Source of the DNA: Yuukianura sp. NJ FZ-2021
Lineage: Eukaryota
Length of the DNA: 64,000 bases
Reading direction: 5' to 3'
Assembly: GCA_046563655.1 (NCBI GenBank)
Contig: CM102286.1
Coordinates: 7,192,001-7,256,000 of the forward strand
In this document: piece by piece, positions 25,578 through 41,017 of the stretch
How the letters are laid out: every line of letters begins with the position of its first letter
How positions within the stretch are numbered: the first letter of the stretch is position 1
Translations under genes and position numbers: made by a program
The notes under the pieces: model-generated
The model's database searches: none
What the model was told of the DNA's origin: nothing
Seen by the model: only the letters and a program-made list of their open reading frames with translations

Positions 25578-28500
25578 GTCCTTTTATTACAGCGTGTTGT
25601 ATCTGTCGCCCCCTTAAGTCACTCAAGACAGGAAAATTGAAACCGCATCCGTCCCCTTCAAGGCAAAACAACAAGGGCCCCTCCTATCCTTTGAGGCCTT
25701 CACCTTTAAAACGACATACAATGGAAGTTTGCTCAATTTGATACCGTCATATTAATCAAACTAAATTTATTTAGTCAAGGACTGACTGTAATATTGAGTC
25801 AGAAATTGCAGTATACTGTGTGACGGTAAGCGTTTTCGTTTTGTACAGCGAAAATTTGTGTCAGGTCAATTCGTCAAGTCTTTGGGAATTTCTTACAAAT
25901 CGTGCTAGTGCAGTGTGATAAGTGCATTTTCGTATGCGGGATCTGGTTATTTGTTAATCCCCGATTCACCGTCAAAAAGTTGAATTGAAATACTTTTTTG
26001 AAATTGAAAATTGCCAACATGCAATTTTCAAAAAAAAACATGGAACTCGCGGTTTGTTCCTGAAAAGTTTAACTTTAGGTTAAGTTTTGCAAGTGAGGTA
26101 TATCAAATATGTTGTATCAAAAATAAGGTTATCAAAAATAATTTCCAATTTCAAAAAAACATTTCAACTTATTCAATTATTGCATTGAATAACGTTGAAG
26201 TCCGCTGTAGAAACTGACCGTGCTGCTAGATAGGTGGGTTCACTTAGTTTAATCCTAAGTTATTATCCCAAAGATCAACACGGAAGGAATTACATGCATT
26301 AGGTTTGCCTGTGTTTAAAACTGATTTTCCGGACTTATCCTTATTTTTTCTTTTTCTTACGCCAAATCGCTTTTGAGGCTTCTAGGGCAGGAGAACTGGT
26401 TGTCGGTTATATAAAATTTTGGAATTGGTTTTTGATGAAAGGTTCACATAAGCGTAAGTAATTCTAATACAATTCTATAGTCTGTGATTAGAAGGTAAGA
26501 GGGCTGGAAAATAGAATTCTTTGATTCTGGTTCCGGCTTGTCAGTGACACTACGGAAAAAGAAGCTGCCTCCAGGACAATCCGTTCTTCCGTAAGTGTCA
26601 GTTGAACGATATCAGATTTCTCATCTGCAGATTGAAAATTCGGTTTCATAAATGGAAGCGCCTGTTTATTTCCATGTTTTAAAAGTTTGAGGACCCCGTG
26701 CGCAGATTGGCAGAATGCATCCAGGATATCTGGAAAGTTGAACATCATAAGATTTCTCTGGAGTTCTTGGAAATGTCAAGCGCAGGTGAAAATTGTATTA
26801 CTGAGGAGAGGGAAATTCTGGAGCGTAGAAGTTTTTGATTTTTGGTCAGAAAGTGCTGACTTAAATCAGATTTTCTGTTTCCTATCATTGGGGTTTGTAT
26901 TGGTTTATGTAGATTTCTGAGGTGGATTTGAAACGGGATAGGGTTGAAAAGATTTCTAGGGAGAATTCGGATATTGACTGACATTGAATCTGAATACTAG
27001 AGAGGAGGTGTTTGGGTTTCAAGTTGAAAAAACGTTTGAAAACCCTGGAGGAAAATGACATAGGATTTGGAAAGTGTGTAGTGCGTTTTCAATTTTAACG
27101 TTAAAGTTGGCATTGGCACTTGGTGAAGAAGAGGGGGAAAAGCAATAAATGCCAAACGAATCTTACCAAAAAAGAAAACCTATCGAATTCCCAATTTGGA
27201 AAAACTCACAACTTTGTAGTATAACATGCTCCAGTAAAAGTCTGTCAAGCTACCGACTGACTTTTGAAATGTTTCGGAGCTTGGCGAGGCGAAGCAACAC
27301 TGGTAGGAAAACGTTAATTTTCAACGTAGACACTGAAATGTCATGTTTTTTTTAATAGAAGACAATCAGTTTGCTTTCAGTAAGGTGAAACAAAAGTTAA
27401 ATGGTAACTTGATCTGTTTACTCCTATCTTATTTTAGTTGAACCATTGCTAATAACGCCAATGTGTTTTCGTTTTTAGAAAATTTCTCTAATTGGTCCTA
27501 TAATCTTTGTTGGTTTTTATTCTAGACAAGTGGTTTGTAATATAGTCTTTCGTTTATGCTCCGAATTGGGCCTGTTTAGCAGTATTTATAACATGACGTT
27601 TGCAAGTGGATTGGTTGAAGATGGACAGGGCAAGCATAATTTCCAGACATGGCATCGAACATTACGAAATTACGATATAAAGTTGACGATACGGTGCTTG
27701 TGATATTTGCAATCTCAAACGGAGAGAATGTCTCGCTAGGACGTATTTTTACTATTGATTTGATCACATTTTAAAGTTGGCCTGAAAGTGTTCAAGTCCT
27801 TCTGGAGGTTGATGGTTGGAAGGGCTGGAGAGCGTAGAGTCCCATTGAAAAGTTGCAGAGCAGAGGCTGTAGGCTTAAAACAAAGTGGGAAGGGAATGGG
27901 TCCTAGGGGTAGACAAAGTAAAAAGTCATACAATTTGAAGAGCCCCGACACTCCGCTCGTACATCTATTGTTTAGCACGACTCCCTCTTCGCCAATATTC
28001 TCTGAATGAGCAGGAAGCTCTTGGATGCTGCTGGGGAAAGCTCCAAGAGAAAGTTCTATTATGCTCCGGCTATAAAACTCCGGCTCGCTTTTGATTGAGC
28101 GCTTTTGGAATACTTTCAGAGTCATTTCAAGGATCTTTCATCTTTCCCTACTCAAAATCCTCATCCAGATTATGTCTCTCCAACTTAATAAGGCAAGAGG
28201 AACAAAAATTAAAATTTTATGAAGGCAGCAAAACTTTTGTAACTTTTCCCAACATTGGCAGCATTTACAGCATGACTGGCTCCGGTTTCAGCTTTAGTAC
28301 TGAGACTGCTTTGGTTTTGTCTTTGGAAACGACCAAATGGAATTAAAATTACACAGTACACAATTTTTTTTAGAGAGCTTACAATTTCAGAATTTTGGTA
28401 AATGTGAAAATGGGGTTTGAGGAAAGTCTAGCGGCTCAATGCATTGTGCTATTTCACTTTACAAAATTTTAAAAAATTCGTTTTTTTTAATCTTTGCTTC

Positions 28501-28599
28501 TTTTTTGTCTCTTTGCAGAATAAAGATCTGTTCCGTTGCGGACGAGATTTTTTGTGGAGGCGACTATGATACGAAGTTGTAAAAGAACGCGAAACTTCG

Positions 28600-30759
28600 A
28601 TGAAATCGCGAGGTAGCAAGACTATGAAAGAAAAATGTGACACTGGTCGAATTACTGGGAGAATGCACAGTTTCAATGCATCTCCGACTCATACAATCGG
28701 AGGTCCGGTTGACACCATTACATTGGGTTCTCAGCCTATCCTAACACATGAAACGCAGTACCCTGATCAGGCACAGTTCGAAGCCGACAAGAGATCGGTC
28801 TATAAGTAAGTTCATGCTCTGTGAAATTGAAATTTTGAAATCTCCCGATGATTTTACCAAATTATTGGTTCTTGATGACTCCTGAGAGCTACCTAAAGCT
28901 AATCTTCTCTATGAGGCTTAAAAAACCACTCAATCATATGCGAAAAATGCGTATACATAAATTGTTTAATATTTTTGTGTTTTTGTTTCCAGGCACCCTC
29001 TATTCCCTCTTCTAGCACTTCTTTTTGAGAAGTGCGAAATGGCCACCCAAACAGCCGCTGACTCTCCGATCTCCGATAGTTTTCACCAGGATCTCGAGGT
29101 ATGATGACGACAGGCTACACAATTGCTACTAATTTTCAATTTGTCGCTAATTGAGCATTTTTGCAATATTAGGCATTTGTCCAGCACCAGGAGCGGGACA
29201 AAAAGCCATTTCTTGTCAACGACCCTGAAATTGATGGACTGGTAACAAAATTATTCTTCACACATAACATGATGCTATCGCCAAGAGCCGTCCATTGATT
29301 TGTGGTTTGTATCTTTGACAGATGATCAAAGCTATTCAAGTGTTACGAATACATTTACTGGAGCTGGACAAAGTACAAGAACTGTGCAAGGACTTTTGCA
29401 ACCGATACATTACCTGTTTGAAGGGGAAGATGCAGAGTGAGAACCTCCTTCGGTCTGACTACTACGAAAATGGAATTGGAAACAACGGCGGAATCCACCT
29501 CAGTTCACAAAGTAACAGTCCAAATAATTCCTACTCGTCAAATGGGGATGCCTCTGTTTCACCTCCAAATGGAGTATTCCATGTCCAACATTTGAGCACT
29601 GTACAGAATTACCCTCTGCATAACACTCCACCATGTTCGACATTGAGTCATACCAGCAATAGCTTGCCTCCAGTATCAATGCCACTCTCCATAGGTCAAC
29701 CATCATCTCCGGAAGATCACTCCAACAGCACCAACCACCATCATCACAATTCTTCTTCTGCATCCCCTGGCTCAGGCACGACACTCATCCACGGCGGAAC
29801 ACCTCTCTCTCAAATTGGTGCCAACCTCTGCCCTCCTGTTTCCCAAGACACATTTGTGCAAAGTATGTAAATTCAAGAATTATAAGTTAAGCCTACGTTG
29901 AACTATTGAAGTTTTATTTATGAAAAATGTTTGTATTATTCCAGCCCCGCAGAGTCCTAGCTCTGGGGACGAAGATGACGATTACTTGGGAAGGAAGAAG
30001 CCAAAGAGAGGAGTACTTCCGAAACACGCCACGTCTATTATGAGGTCGTGGCTATTCCAGCATATTGTGGTGAGCAATTTCCCTATAAAATTTTGTAATA
30101 AGCTAGCACTGATATTCGAATGATTATCTACACCATGGTCCTTGATTTCCTGAAAGAACCAAAAGCTAATCTTCTCTATGACAAGTTGTAGTATTTGGAG
30201 AGGTCAAGACTTTGTGCAGAAGTAAGCAACGTTTTAGTAAATCTTTCTATATAATTTTGTGAGCAGCATCCTTACCCAACGGAAGACGAAAAGAGACAAA
30301 TCGCTGCTCAGACGAATCTTACTCTCCTACAAGTTAATAACTGGTTTATCAACGCTAGAAGACGAATACTCCAACCTATGCTTGATGCTTCAAATCCTGA
30401 AGCTTCGACTACACCCAAGGTATATCCCATGTCACGATAGTTCGAAGCGTAACTTGCATTATAAACTAGATTCTCTGAATATATAGGTGAAGAAAATTAA
30501 GACGCATAACTCAAAGCCAGCCCTGAAGTACTGGTCAGACAATTTAGCTTCTGTGGGTTCTGGACAAGTAGATGACGATGCCGATGACTCAAACGGCTTA
30601 GGCCAAGGTAAAACGTAATCACGAAAAACTTGAAATAATCGGCGAATCTCTAATAATCGGTAATGTCACTTCTTAGATGATTCCAGCGATGAGCTGGACG
30701 AGAGCAGTAATGACGGAAATGATCTCCTCATTGACAATAGCGACTCGTCTCAACACTGA
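28600..30759 (+). CDS. PKNOX: PKNOX/Prep TALE-class homeobox protein, 8 coding exons
   Basis: MEINOX motifs [24 protein letters not shown] and [44 protein letters not shown]. Homeodomain [60 protein letters not shown] is PKNOX-type rather than Meis/hth. Start codon 28600 or 28624 is uncertain. Confidence 0.95.
28844..28918 (+). ncRNA. Intronic box C/D snoRNA, U6-A47 2'-O-methylation guide (mgU6-47/SNORD7/Z30-like), copy 1
   Basis: Variant C box ATGATTT (28848); guide GCTAATCTTCTCT (28898-28910) complementary to U6 AGAGAAGAUUAGC; variant D box ATGA (28911-28914), ~78 nt upstream of the 3' splice site. Confidence 0.8.
30116..30185 (+). ncRNA. Intronic box C/D snoRNA, U6-A47 guide, copy 2
   Basis: C box ATGATTA (30120); internal stem TGGTCCTT/AAGAACCA; same guide GCTAATCTTCTCT (30165-30177); D box ATGA (30178-30181), ~85 nt upstream of the 3' splice site. 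Confidence 0.8.
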
Positions 30760-31347
30760 GTCTCGCAGTTTCAATGGTTTCCCACCTTCCTTCAACTCTG
30801 CTGTTTCCTGATCTTCCATTCCAGAAGAATTTTAATGAAAGACATTGGAGTATTCGGTCTAAAGCTACTGGAATTTTACTCGTTCCTTCACAATTTTATC
30901 TTTAAATTATTCTCGGGTTCGTTTCTTCGAACACCTTGCTTTTCTCATTCTCATTACGAATTGCTCAAATTACTGAAATATTTTAAGTGTAGAAAAACTA
31001 GGATCTCCATTTGATATTAAGTTGAAATTGTCACGAGACATTGTTTATGAGAAGTATGGTTCCTTGTCACATTGACTCATTGTCATTCCACTTTCCACGC
31101 ATCAAGTTGTTTATGTTAAAGTTTAGAACAGCATTTTTCGAAAAAATTAAAATTTAGTACTTTAGTTAGCTTGTTTGCTGATGGATTTAGCCTTTTTCTT
31201 GTGTCATTAAAAACGTAAAATAAGTTCCGTTTTGGAACCCAGTAAGCTGGCCTGAATAAATCAAAGAAAAAAATTTGAAGGCCGCCGAGATGAGTGAACT
31301 TGTGCTAAGTTAAAGGTCGATGGAGAATCGATTAGGGAAGTAACAGG

Positions 31348-31501
31348 GAGAGATTTAGCCGAAAATGAATCTGCTATGAATAATGGTACAAATCAAGGAA
31401 AACGCAAGAAACCGAAACTGAAGAGACGGAAGCTGGAGGATGAAGGAGAGTCGGACAATGAAGATGAAAAATTAAAATCTGTGGCTGTTTCAGCCGATTG
31501 G
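31348..31501 (+). pseudogene. Isolated coding-like exon fragment (basic then acidic, ending KLKSVAVSADW)
   Basis: Reads ENESAMNNGTNQGKRKKPKLKRRKLEDEGESDNEDEKLKSVAVSADW up to a GTAACT donor; in-frame stops just upstream; no other exons found. Confidence 0.3.
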
Positions 31502-33835: not shown

Positions 33836-36280
33836 ATGGATTCCATTCCAAACGAAGTAAGATCAATTTGGTTCCTAGTTTTAAAAACTATTGAAACCTT
33901 CGACCTTGAAACATATTAAAGTGTCCAGGTTGAAGAGAATAAATATGCCAATATGCCAATATGAGATAGTTCGGCATATCTCTTGCTTTGCATTTGAATA
34001 ACGTTATTTTAAACATCCAAAACGTATTTTTATAAAAACAAGAATCTCCGCTCCGCTCAAACAAGATTTCGACATACAAAAAAGTTAAAATTAGATACGT
34101 TCTTGTTGAGTTCACATGCTTAACAATGTTTATCTTAACAATCTTATTGTGTTTCAGATTGTGCTTCAAATCATCGGTTGTTTGAGGAAGCAAGAAATTC
34201 TTAAGTTGCGCCTGGTCAATCAACGCTTCAACCAACTAGCAACGAGAAGTGTACTACCAAAGTTGTTGCCAGCGAAGTTTATAAAAGACTCTGACATCGT
34301 CAAGTTTATTTCGGTGTTTAAACACAACAAAACGGTCGTTCCGTTCGAAAAGTTTGTATTTTCGCAACATCTCTCCGCATATGGGGAGCCACTGGAGGAG
34401 TTTTGTGGCCAGTTTGGAAGGATTGTGAAATGCTGGCGAATTTGGAGTTGGCCTCTTGATCAAACGCTAAAACAGAATTCCCTGTTCAACAACATCCAAA
34501 TCTTATTGGAAAAATGCGAAAATGTAGAAAAAATCCATTACCAAATTGGGGAAGAGGAAACTGTGCCAACTGTGGAAGAGGAAATGGCGAGTGTTCTTGA
34601 AATGCCTATACTCAGAAAGTTAAAAACAATCAAGATCAAAGTCGGTGAATCTATGAACAAAGTCGACTTCATTCGTCTTCTGGTTCTTTTGAAAAAAGCT
34701 CCAAATCTTAAGAACGTTTCAATCAAAAGTATTGGAGATTACACCGCTACATCATCATACCATGCTCTTGCGCCAAATATCCTAAACCATCTCTACAGAA
34801 TCAATGGAACCGTCCACATTCAAAAGTTGGATCTACATGTTCAGTTTCCAGCGGTGAACTTCAGTGACCTCGAAAACTTGGTTGCAGTTTCAACAAAATT
34901 CAAAATTCTTAACTTGAATTTAACCTTAATGCCACGGGATCCCAGTTCTGGAAGTGTACCTCAAACACTAGAATTTATTTCAAAATGGATTCCAAAACTG
35001 ACGTTTTTGCGCAGACTAAGTGTAGAATGTCTCCACTTCTGGGCAGACAACGATGGTCATTTCCACTACTTTGGTCCAATTGAACTACCACTCCGTTCCC
35101 TCTCCAATGTTCAATGTCTGGAGCTTTATTCCCCACATGAACCTGTCGCTTTACGTCAAACGGTGCATTTTCCAACTCTCACTTCACTCGACTGCATATA
35201 TCATGGAACGACGGATAAGTTCATCTTTGCTGGATGTGTATTTCCAAATGTGAAATACGCAAATATCTACTTGAAAACGGACCAAGAGCGGCAGCATTGG
35301 CCATCCGTACTGCCCAACGTCACTCAATTATGCGTTGCTTCTAAAACATTGAAAGGGATTTTTCAGTTTCCAAAGGTTCAGACACTGCATATTTATGTCG
35401 ATTCTGTAGCAAATGAACCTGATGATGTTCGTGAACTTCAATTAAAACACTGGAACCACCTAACGAACGGAGCCGAATACATTTCCAATAGCGTCATTGC
35501 CAATTCTCTGCCAGTAACCGAGAAAACCTCCGAGTCGATTGATTCGTTTCGGAATTTGCCACGTAAGTCATCAATTTTTATAATACATCTTTTAATCTTC
35601 TAATTTTTTGATGTATAAATTTAATAAGTTTAGATAAAGGCGGGTTCACACCGGACAATTGGATGTTTTTTTCCATTCACTAGACGTCAATGCCGTGTTG
35701 AGAGGTTGGATCACCGATCCAGACCAGAAGTTCAATCATCATCAGTTGAACTTTTGGTCTGGATCGAAATCCAGCCATGGAAAAAATTTCCAACGCCTTG
35801 CTTTCTCTAAAATATGGTGTGAACGAGACAAAATCTATGGATGCAAAATCCATACAGTGGTCCGGTGTGAACCCGCCTTAAGAGTTCAAGCTAAACACAA
35901 AATGATCGTTCATGTATCGGTGAATGTATTAACAAATGTTGCTTGTTTTTACCAGAACTGACACATTTGAAGTTCTTTTCGCTCGACCAGATTGAGTGCT
36001 GGAAGGGCGTTATTTACGCCAGCCAAACTGGGCAACTACGACGCCTTCGGAAACTTGTCTTCCGTCATGCTGATTTTAATGAGGTGAGTGTTGAATTACT
36101 TTCAAAACATAATCCTAGTATTTCAAAATTTTAAAAAAGAGAATATGTAAATGAAGATAAAATTTCAAATTTCAGAAGGACGATTACCTGGAAGTACTGA
36201 TGAAGTACCACGATTCAGTGATTACTACCGCACAACATGCTATACCACCGTTCCCCTGGAATGAATTGTTTCTAGATTAA
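33836..36280 (+). CDS. F-box protein with LRR-like C-terminal region, 4 exons
   Basis: MDSIPNE|IVLQIIGCLRKQEILKLRLVNQRFNQLA (F-box). Long exon 34158-35562 with degenerate LxxLxL repeats; exons ~35956-36083 and 36176-36280 continue in frame. Confidence 0.8.
35638..35878. mobile_element. Tourist/PIF-Harbinger-like MITE in F-box gene intron
   Basis: Perfect 19-bp TIR AGGCGGGTTCACACCGGAC / GTCCGGTGTGAACCCGCCT flanked by TAA on both sides. Confidence 0.85.
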
Positions 36281-36725: not shown

Positions 36726-37343
36726 ATAAGTTTCATCTTTGTCTAAAAAGAGATCGAGAATAATTGTTCTGGAATAGAGTGAGCTGACCTGAACCAACCG
36801 AATACAAAAAAAAAATCGATTTGTCATTTTTTAATTACTAGGATTGATCTTGAATCTAAATTCCACACGGCTTGTACAAAAGCGAATTAATGGAAAAGTT
36901 AATTTAAGTAATTAGTAATAAAATATAAATTATTGGTTGACCATCAAAATCATTAACAGAATGAGCGTAAATTATTTTGTGCATTATGTTACGATCAGGA
37001 GAGCTTTCATGTAGGAAGTGATTAGGTTGTCGGGTTTAAGCGCTGTTCGGTGGGTGGATTGGGTTGCGACGGTCTTTTTGTAAGATTTTTTGGCAAACAA
37101 AATCATCATGGTCATGGTGTCCTCAACTTCGGAACTCTCTAATACAATACGAAGGTAATTGAAATATTTTACTAATTCAGAGATTGGACAACAGAATCAA
37201 CGGAAATGCAATTACCTACCTCATGCTTTTAAGGTCGAATGATTTGCTCCCTGCTGAATTGAGTGGGAGATGAACTTGAGTTGTCAGAAGTTGAAGGACT
37301 CTTAAGGTAGATTGACCATTGGGATTTCGTTTGCCAACGATTC

Positions 37344-40300
37344 CTAGCAAACCCGGTTCGCTACCCTACATACAAATCAAATAATCCAATGAATAACTTT
37401 CTGCTTCAAATTCAGAACTTAGGCTGTATGATTAGGCAACTAGAAAATCTCTAAAATTTTGACCATTTCGCTCAAAATTCTAAATCTTTGGTAAAATTAG
37501 GATCGGAAAATATAAAAACCAGTTGTATGTCTTAAAACATGCGCAATTTATTACTACAGTAATAAGTACCTCTCTGTATCTATTACAATAAATTTGAAGG
37601 AACAGGAGTATAGCCAACATACCTGGTTTGGAAGATAGTGTCTGCATTGTTGTTTATCCAACTAAACAGGACTATGCTCAACAGGAAAACTATTATACCG
37701 GATACAAGTGTCAGGAGTTCCTGAGTCGGTGATACTTTGAGGAAAATCCGAACTCGAAGGTCTGACCAAACGGACTCCGACCATGTTGAGAATCGCCCGC
37801 TCTTCCAATCGTAGTTGTCAACATCATCGAATGCCGGACTAACTGCCGGAGTGACTGTTGCCGTGGTTTGATAGCAGCTCCCGTTGATCCAGATGTACTC
37901 GTATATCTAAAGATGGAAAAAGAAAAAGTTGTAAGGTGGAGTAAAAAAAATGGCTAAGATATTTTTTGACAGAAATCGTCTAAACATTTTCAAAGGTCAA
38001 AACACTTCCACAATCGATGGGTTACCTTCGAATCCTGTTCTCCTCTGTGGCAGTTTTCCTTTGCCCTACTGCTAAGATTTCCTTGGTGATATCCCATGAT
38101 ATGATGAGTGATGGTGGTCAACGCGTTTATGCGTCTATTGACACTAACGTAGAAAGACTTCGGTAACTTGCTCAGTTCATTTGCATCATCATTCGTCACT
38201 GTTTGAAAGAGCTGGCATCCAGGGTTCTTCACATAACATTCCAAAATATCATTGACCTACAGGATACAACGAAATTAGCAATCGTCACTCCATGCTTAAG
38301 TATAAAAGTTAATATTTTCGTTACCAATGCCGGATTCGCAGTGTTGTTAAAAAATGGAGGTCTGCTTCCCACAATCAACTCCTCAATCGAATTTGCTACG
38401 GTCGCAACTAATTCAGCAATTCCATTGACTGTTAAACTTGTGACATCCGAGTAATGAATATTGTGTAGGTCATCCAGAATACTGTTGTAGTGCCTGGAAT
38501 GAACAAGAACATGATCTGCTTTGTGACGGAAACGATATTGGGTTACTGTTGCGACTAGCGGGAAAAGTCAATTTTAAAAGTAAATCTTGTCTTACTTGTT
38601 TTTGAATTCTTTATGGTGATTCGTAAACACAATCCCAGGAAAGTCAGGATTCTGAGCAAGGAATGACTGTAATGATGAAGGTGGCACTCCCATTCCGGTG
38701 TCGTTTGCAACGACGATTTTTGTGGATTGCCGAAGCTTACTAAACTTATTATACAAGTTTTGAAAGTCTTCATCGAACGCGGAAGAATTCCAGTTACGGT
38801 GGATGTAGTAAGAATCACGCGGCGAAGACAGTGAAAGTTGATTAAACTCGATGTAGTACAAGACGTCCTCCAAATGAAGCGATGCTGGGAAATTGCTCGA
38901 CTTGTCTGAACACAAAAGAGTACCATCCTCAAAGCGCTGCTACATATTGAATCTATCAGAATTAAGGTGTTATAAAAGTTGAACTTCACCTGGATCAACT
39001 TTATAAGGAAAGTTGTCATTTGCCATGTCGTATACGATACGGCTGGAGCCAATGTAGTCAAAAGCTTCGCCATTAAATAAGATGAAGTACACATTTGAAA
39101 TCTGCGCCAAAATGTTAGATGTTACATTAAACTTCAAACCGAACACCAGTAAAAGTAAAATATTTTAGTAACATCCCAATGCTATATATCTTACGTTGGC
39201 ACTGGTCTGAAGATGGTCCTTCAGTGGCGCAAGTTGTTTCGCTAAAGCAAGTACAGCAGTTATTCCTGTGGCGGCGGTGTCTGCCCCGGGTGAAATTTGG
39301 TCGAACATTGACGAAGCGTCGAGTCTTGCAGCGATTATCACGACCGACCTAAGCCGCATTTGAAATAATACATAGTAGAATCTTGTGAATGTCAATAACT
39401 CAACTCAATCGATACTCGATGTTCGATCAACGATGAGCTACAAATTCTTACCTTTTCTTATAAGGTTGGGCTTGACTACGGGGCACAAGCGTTGACCATA
39501 CATTTGCATCTCCCAATGGGTCACATACAATATCTAAACAACAATTAAACAATAACTTTTCACTTTCGCAATTTCAACTGCTGGTAGCTGGGTATTTATA
39601 TCCATAAAAGTGACTACTCACTTGGACTGACACTAACTTCGCTTAATTTGTTCCGACGGATACAAGTAGGAGTATCAACGGCCCCGCTCATGAAACTTAA
39701 CAATTCAGCAGCGCACAACGGCCAGTCCCTTGGCGTACCATCCGCATGTGGTTGATTGTATTTACGGTAGCACTATAATAGTTCCAAACATTGCATACCA
39801 TGGTGAATTTTAATTAAGACAACTAAGAGAGTCGTTGATTGGTGTTGCAAATGAATGACTCACATCCAGCAAATAATCTTTTGCTGTATCGGAGGTTGCG
39901 TAGAATATTGGAAAGTTCCAATCACGGAACAAAATCTCGTTCCCGGGGCTATTCCATTTTGGACAAAAGTTGGCATAACTCGCATTGGTGTAGAACCCTG
40001 CAGAGCATAATAACAAAACAAATCATCCTTCAGAAAATGATGATGTTCGTATTGTAATTAAACTGATCCTACCATATCCTCGATTGGGACATTGCTTGTC
40101 CGGTGTGTATTCAACAATGTCCTCTTCTGAGCTTTCATTTCTCGCTAGCAAAACTACACCGCTAACACGTCCCAATGAATTCTGGAATTCTTCCAATACC
40201 TCTGGGTTAAACCACTTCATATGCAGCAATGCGATATATGGAGAGTGCGGGCCCGTTTTAACAATCCAGTCTACATCGGATTCTTTTTCTATCAAGTGAA

Positions 40301-40691
40301 GAACGCCAACACTCCCACCTTGCTTCGCTGAAAATTAAACAGAACAAAAAAATGAAATCGTAGCCAACAGTGGTTGATGACAGGTGACTGAGGATTACTA
40401 TTTTTTTAAGTTAAGTAGGAGGTGAGAATTTGTTAAATTAAACAAAAGTGAGATAAAATATAACTCACAGCTGCATCCGAACTGATGAGTACCGTTCATT
40501 CGACGGAAGCAGGCGTAACTATCTGTAATCTTCTCATAGATTCGTTGGCTAACAACAGTCTCTCGGTCATTCGCAGCGCCGGAGCATTGCAGCAGTGTCA
40601 AAACTAGGATAGTCGCTCGAATTATTTTCTTCGGTATGGTGCTGATGCTTTCACCATCGCCATGCACACCAAAAATTAGTCCTCCAGACAT
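37344..40691 (-). CDS. NCSTN: Nicastrin (gamma-secretase subunit), multi-exon
   Basis: CFRRMNGTHQFGC, WNSPGNEILFRDWNFPIF, AARLDASSMFDQISPGA, LFNGEAFDYIGSSRIVYDM (DYIGS motif), PPSSLQSFL, STWSESVW then a TM segment. The last exon (37344-37365, RVANRVC*) is inferred. Confidence 0.95.
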
Positions 40692-41017
40692 TCTCCCCTC
40701 TTGACTGCTCGACAGTCCGTTAGCAGATTTCCGGAACAGACAGGAGTCGAGTCTGTAGAGCCGAAGTCTCAACTATAAAAATCTTTAACGTCAAGTCAAC
40801 GTGAGTAGACGATGTATTTAACGTCGGATCGGAGGGTGGAGATGGGACACGCTTTCCTAAAAAAAAATCAAAGAAATAAACGTTCATCAGAATTGATTTT
40901 TAAAATAGTAAACACAAAATAAAACAATGAAATGATATCTGCTGCATCATGCACCTGCCGTGGACGCGGTGCACGCAGCAGTATAAAATTTATTTGTGTA
41001 AATCTGAAAGTATTTAA

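Follow-up and report, generated by a model that had tools for sequence, protein, structure and literature searches.

Two putative intron-encoded box C/D guide RNAs for U6 A47 in the PKNOX homeobox gene of a springtail

Two introns of one homeobox gene of Yuukianura sp. NJ FZ-2021 contain a similar short element, which raises the question of whether these elements are RNA genes and, if so, what they guide. They lie in a 64,000-nt stretch (the window, meaning the whole stretch of DNA that was analysed), and an earlier note had described them as two paralogous C/D guides for A47 of U6, sharing an element of ~65 nt with an identical 13-mer directly before ATGA, about 80 nt upstream of the acceptor. 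The features concerned are as follows.

28600..30760, + strand: coding region of the PKNOX/Prep (TALE homeobox) host, from open reading, Pfam and springtail PKNOX best matches
28600-28805, 28993-29098, 29173-29241, 29322-29862, 29945-30069 and 30267-30419, + strand: modelled PKNOX exons
near 30487 and 30677-30760, + strand: two further 3' exons of PKNOX, bounds approximate
28806..28992, + strand: host intron A, 187 nt
28848..28914, + strand: putative guide RNA copy A, 67 nt from box C to box D
28848..28854, + strand: copy A box C, AUGAUU-U, the U at its position 6 pairing with A1 of box D
28867..28893, + strand: copy A internal hairpin, with closing GGU/ACC pairs and a short loop
28872-28875, + strand: copy A D', UUGA
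28882-28888, + strand: copy A C', CUGAGAG
28898..28910, + strand: copy A antisense element, 13 bp with U6 nt 43-55, D+5 = A47
28911..28914, + strand: copy A box D, AUGA, 78 nt before the acceptor
30070..30266, + strand: host intron B, 197 nt, interrupting the homeodomain
30120..30181, + strand: putative guide RNA copy B, 62 nt from box C to box D
30120-30126, + strand: copy B box C
30142-30145 and 30150-30156, + strand: copy B D' and C'
30165-30177, + strand: copy B guide
30178-30181, + strand: copy B box D, 85 nt before the acceptor

In the intron model, which was built on GT-AG sites and protein alignment and has a putative start codon, GT-AG joins of the six exons from 28600 to 30419 yield a single open frame. 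The encoded protein contains the Pfam domains Meis_PKNOX_N and Homeobox_KN (PF16493, PF05920), its closest proteins are those of the springtails Allacma fusca and Orchesella cincta, and in a tree of 14 proteins it falls with these two in a 100/99 clade; the host had thus been correctly named as PKNOX, of which the genome contains a single match of this type. Between A and B lie three introns without a guide, of 74, 80 and 82 nt. Other PKNOX introns were considered as further hosts and rejected, since the C-box-like words in 29099-29172 and 29242-29321 are absent from the orthologous introns of contig L104, a PKNOX-encoding metagenome contig. Over the whole window, model R1 matched the two units and no others.

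In both units box C AUGAUU comes first. After roughly 12 bases without conservation there is a D'/C' hairpin, whose C' reads CUGAGAG or CUGAAAG, and a short spacer then leads to the guide, which box D AUGA follows directly. The likeness of the two copies extends past the 13-mer, as their interiors still give z = 5.4 against shuffles when boxes and guide are removed, and their flanks, tested in the same way, give z = 1.2 and 0.4. Beyond what the earlier note had remarked, the outer boxes depart together from the canonical RUGAUGA and CUGA, with U for G at position 6 of box C and A for C at position 1 of box D, so that the stem II pair becomes U-A. When the two window units are taken together with six orthologous units described below, both G-A pairs, the U-U pair and the Watson-Crick C6-D1 pair of the K-turn are found in all eight, the last being U-A each time, and box C is invariant in 8/8, its TGAT-K core having been demanded by the search pattern. 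UUGA followed by N-UGA-RAG/UAA likewise occurs in 8/8 units, with pairing below the G-A pairs. In the internal stem, 92.5% of cells are paired versus 40–56% in slid controls, with one two-sided change from C-G to U-A; covariation in this stem does not stand out from shuffles, 62 of 500 of which do as well. The hairpins alone fold weakly (z −1.84 and −0.37). In the window copies the terminal stem is likewise weak or offset (best flank duplexes −5.2 and −7.2 kcal/mol); a terminal stem is clear in L104_A, L156 and L090. A second guide before D' was also considered and rejected, the stretch after box C being unconserved and the bases before D' being already paired.

As to the target, the guide forms 13 contiguous base pairs with U6 nt 43-55 (−18.6 kcal/mol) and matches both U6 genes of the genome perfectly. 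ACAGAGA occupies nt 41-47 in both U6 genes, with numbering identical to human, and the D+5 rule selects A47, the last A of this box; the guide overlaps that box in part and also takes in the AGC triad. The units resemble U6 over these 13 nt and no further, the similarity stopping right at the D box. A47 is described in PMC5855946 as the known mgU6-47 site, and according to PMC5855946 and PMC10484740 it is methylated via mgU6-47 in human and, as A41, via snoZ30 in S. pombe. The second U6 gene, at L002:1502-1608 (G000:C8:1709892-1709998), is diverged (94.9 bits versus 111.9): its 5' region, internal stem-loop and 3' part have all changed, and the A47 target stretch is unaltered. A division of labour between the copies over the two U6 genes was rejected, because the target stretch is identical and both guides make the same 13 bp.

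The 13-mer by itself carries little weight. A single one is expected 0.0027 times per 64-kb window, and the 98.7-Mb genome contains five exact matches versus ~4.2 expected from base composition, that is, without enrichment; since this count is near expectation it proves nothing, and the context is what counts. The five copies are the two U6 genes, the two PKNOX elements and a further one (L004) that no D box follows. With a shorter guide-plus-D-box pattern, six matches were obtained in the genome and six in the reversed control, and the four outside the window have neither the extended guide nor a fitting C box. Given this result, and since the snoZ30 model reaches at best 23.2 bits in the genome (six sub-threshold matches, all away from the locus), the A47 guide candidates found in the assembly are the PKNOX pair alone, although guides with mismatches might escape the pattern. 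A guide for U6-C77 elsewhere in the genome was also looked for, and none of the six pattern matches is clearly a snoRNA. L174:1490-1520 (G000:C6) could be such a guide: a C-box-like word stands immediately before it, and no clear D box was seen.

The Rfam snoZ30 comparison proposed in the earlier note gave no match at the locus. At the gathering cut-offs (50 bits for RF00288 snoZ30 and 80 bits for RF01196 snoZ30a) the whole window is without matches, and at E up to 10 the region 26500-31500 yields no snoRNA family at the locus and four unrelated chance matches; the orthologues in L063, L135 and L156 are also without a snoZ30 match. Judged by their sequence, the PKNOX units would work like mgU6-47/SNORD7/snoZ30, yet outside Rfam snoZ30/snoZ30a membership.

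Evidence also comes from other PKNOX genes. Metagenome contigs were scanned with a pattern made up of the C-box core, a gap, a 12-nt guide and C/A-TGA, neither host nor position being part of it. At least 124 stretches matched, and 122 loci were examined, 44 of these with only ~300 nt of flank. PKNOX-encoding loci account for 6 of the 122 among the matches listed, on five contigs, and in all of them the match sits in the orthologue of intron A or intron B, on the sense strand only and 75-102 nt from the acceptor. L104 carries both copies, L063 carries A, and L135, L156 and L090 carry B; intron A of L090 is 89 nt long and empty. The L104 and L090 proteins group with springtails in the tree, and L063, L135 and L156 are too short for it (L063 and L156 could be one species). 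The boxes and guide of copy A are intact in 3/4 orthologous A introns (window, L104 and L063), intron A of L135 being unreadable. Guide-bearing introns measure 187-229 nt and guide-free introns, including intron A of L090, 64-101 nt. Intronic C/D snoRNAs typically lie ~65-90 nt before the 3' splice site, and the spacing had rightly been called typical, with 78 and 85 nt here and 75-102 nt in the six orthologous units.

Outside the searched motifs, the units are also related. Once the two outer boxes and the guide are taken out, the interiors exceed shuffles in all 21 of 21 pairs without L090 (z 2.4–8.4), the seven pairs with L090 align poorly (z 0.8–2.8), and the flanks reach at most z = 1.9 across 28 pairs. 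L063 carries a longer, partly self-complementary insertion exactly in the D'–C' loop. The PKNOX proteins of the window and L104 are 86% identical, and each gene retains both copies, with unit similarity highest between the B copies (score 50), then between the A copies (42), and lower for the cross pairs (34 and 35). Since the window A copy scores 42 against the B unit of L156, and since the host tree gives L090 no firm place within the springtail clade, a gain after L090 and a loss in L090 fit equally well. A looser pattern gave 21 chance matches in viral contigs, so part of the 122 loci must be noise; noise, however, would not fall in two fixed introns of one gene. The conservation in orthologous introns that the earlier note had called for was thus borne out in springtail-like loci, and because relatives carry it in the same introns, the guide is very probably real.

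Other parts of the window are conserved in L104 as well. Two non-coding blocks upstream of PKNOX, at 27076-27202 and 27872-28001, are 82% and 74% identical to L104 and are candidate 5' UTR exons or promoter elements. The gene at 37583-40772 (− strand), which we take to be nicastrin, stands tail-to-tail with PKNOX in both the window and L104; just past its 3' end a 43-nt block (37312-37354) is 93% identical to L104, with unremarkable folding (z −1.1 and −1.4) and no Rfam match. The gap between the two genes is ~5 kb longer in the window than in L104 and contains a 497-aa open reading frame at 34110-35603.

Taken together, the anatomy, the D+5 position on the species' own U6 and the orthologous-intron conservation support the earlier claim of two paralogous C/D guides for U6 A47. 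We put a probability of roughly 0.88 on the reading that both elements are intron-encoded box C/D guide RNA genes of the mgU6-47/SNORD7/snoZ30 functional class, the proposed processing and A47 methylation included. On this reading PKNOX would be transcribed and spliced, the host supplying broad transcription only; Snu13, Nop56/58 and fibrillarin would assemble on the K-turn and protect the unit; the intron would be debranched and trimmed to an RNA of ~65-75 nt; and the guide would pair with U6 nt 43-55, whereupon fibrillarin would 2'-O-methylate A47. The second copy would stem from cis-duplication into another intron. The processing, protein-binding and methylation steps are modelled on the general intronic C/D snoRNA pathway, as outlined in PMC8178906 and PMC10557570. 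The two copies are probably redundant or dosage-adding, which is the simplest view since they share a target and have no conserved D' guide, and either copy could be poorly expressed.

It is unlikely that one copy alone functions while its duplicate decays or is hardly expressed. Copy A has extra loop bases and a box C that ends in UUU, and same-host C/D paralogues can differ widely in level according to PMC8178906; set against this, copy A is intact in three of the four A introns while the flanks have diverged to chance level. It is quite unlikely that springtails tie their whole U6-A47 guide supply to PKNOX and keep the copies, one of them in the intron that splits the homeodomain, for cis control of PKNOX splicing or because PKNOX expression sets tissue-specific methylation levels beside the ACAGAGA box, an arrangement that, if true, would link a developmental transcription factor to spliceosome tuning. 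We regard as very unlikely the related view that the guides are real and also act in cis, the snoRNP or the U6-antisense element modulating the splicing of introns A and B and so coupling PKNOX output to snoRNP or U6 status. In its favour, two species with 86% identity between their PKNOX proteins keep both copies, intron B divides the homeodomain, the guide reaches across the AGC triad into the ACAGAGA box, part of which it covers, and effects of an intronic snoRNA on host splicing are known for NOP56 (PMC10557570). Speaking against cis action, the introns contain no conserved flank or extra element, intron A of L090 is empty, redundant same-host copies are the norm as reported in PMC8178906, and no observation requires it. 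Finally, it is barely credible that the elements are not RNA genes but arose by chance, derive from U6 pseudogenes or form a regulatory motif at the DNA level. For this view, the 13-mer count is near expectation, Rfam is silent at the locus and loose patterns find chance matches such as those in viral contigs; against it, U6 similarity is limited to the 13 nt that end at the D box, the four boxes are correctly ordered with compensatory pairing, and the position is fixed in the same introns of five other contigs, on the sense strand only.

With both elements read as guide RNA genes, the U-A box pair can be set beside other A47-guide-like matches. From 79 distinct matches among those listed, 21 without a purine-led C box were dropped and 58 scored, giving a C6-D1 pair of U/A in 25, G/C in 26, mismatched in five and ambiguous in two. 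The U/A class represents about two independent origins and not 25, since it consists essentially of plant-like U27 clusters and springtails. AUGAUU with AUGA is also described, in PMC6461891, for nucleomorph snoRNAs, as a compensatory and K-turn-compatible pair. It would appear that the pair arose independently in an animal, and snoRNA finders that expect canonical boxes would miss such units.

The same matches contain several other arrangements. Dual U6 guides are probable in 12 of the 79 distinct matches listed, which have an upstream element complementary to U6 around C77 (L036, L049, L052, L057, L068, L084, L085 with two copies, L096, L118, L140 and L144); the springtail units are without this U6-C77 element. 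The two L085 copies lie ~1.4 kb apart (L085:4573-6016) in a gene with a steroid 5-alpha-reductase-type domain, and this pair is another case of same-host duplication. A U27-like motif occurs in 19 of the 79 distinct matches listed, 18 of these 19 with an AUGA D box (L117, L127, L139 and similar ones). They look like dual 18S/U6-A47 guides, and those checked, L117, L127 and L139, lie in plant-type snoRNA clusters whose nearest score is to SNORD27.

Two further statements of the earlier note found little support. A developmental transcription factor had been called an unusual host; Prep1 expression is, however, ubiquitous in mouse and early zebrafish according to PMC3008670, and other A47-guide-like matches lie in or beside non-ribosomal genes, namely those for SSRP1, a WW/FF-domain protein and a steroid-dehydrogenase-domain protein. 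The duplication between introns had been called unusual as well, and this is equally weak, because C/D snoRNAs usually duplicate within one host, as described in PMC8178906. What appears to be new is an Rfam-invisible U6-A47 guide in springtails and an unreported host, PKNOX, the kind of RNA being already known. Among the openly available papers listed by a literature search, supplementary tables aside, no report of a PKNOX-hosted snoRNA or of a springtail U6 guide was found, nor was the host gene of Drosophila mgU6-47 found in the literature searched. The conserved one- or two-copy arrangement is a potential marker for snoRNA movement in early hexapods, and if PKNOX were the only guide source, the level of U6 Am47 would follow PKNOX transcription.

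Among known systems, the closest in function are mgU6-47/SNORD7, S. pombe snoZ30 and Drosophila mgU6-47, in which a D-box antisense element to the U6 ACAGAGA region likewise selects A47 (A41 in S. pombe), as described in PMC5855946, PMC10484740, PMC3884663 and PMC8599867. The PKNOX units differ from them in length (62-67 nt versus the 97 positions of the Rfam model), in their AUGAUU/AUGA boxes and in occurring as two copies in PKNOX introns, the comparison covering guide and boxes. The nucleomorph RNAs GtNM-R12-14 share the compensatory pair of AUGAUU with AUGA, but PMC6461891 gives rRNA targets as predicted for them and they belong to an unrelated lineage; the box variant is convergent. The plant-like SNORD27/U27-type clusters (L117, L127 and L139) share both the A47 D-box guide and the AUGAUU/AUGA boxes; unlike the PKNOX units, they have a conserved second, U27-like element and are polycistronic, and they score 42–43 bits versus the SNORD27 cut-off of 52. 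In genomic arrangement the nearest parallels are human SNORD12 and SNORD58, whose paralogues also lie in different introns of one host and are ascribed to cis recombination in PMC8178906, whereas the host of the PKNOX units is a TALE transcription factor and their predicted target is U6 and not rRNA.
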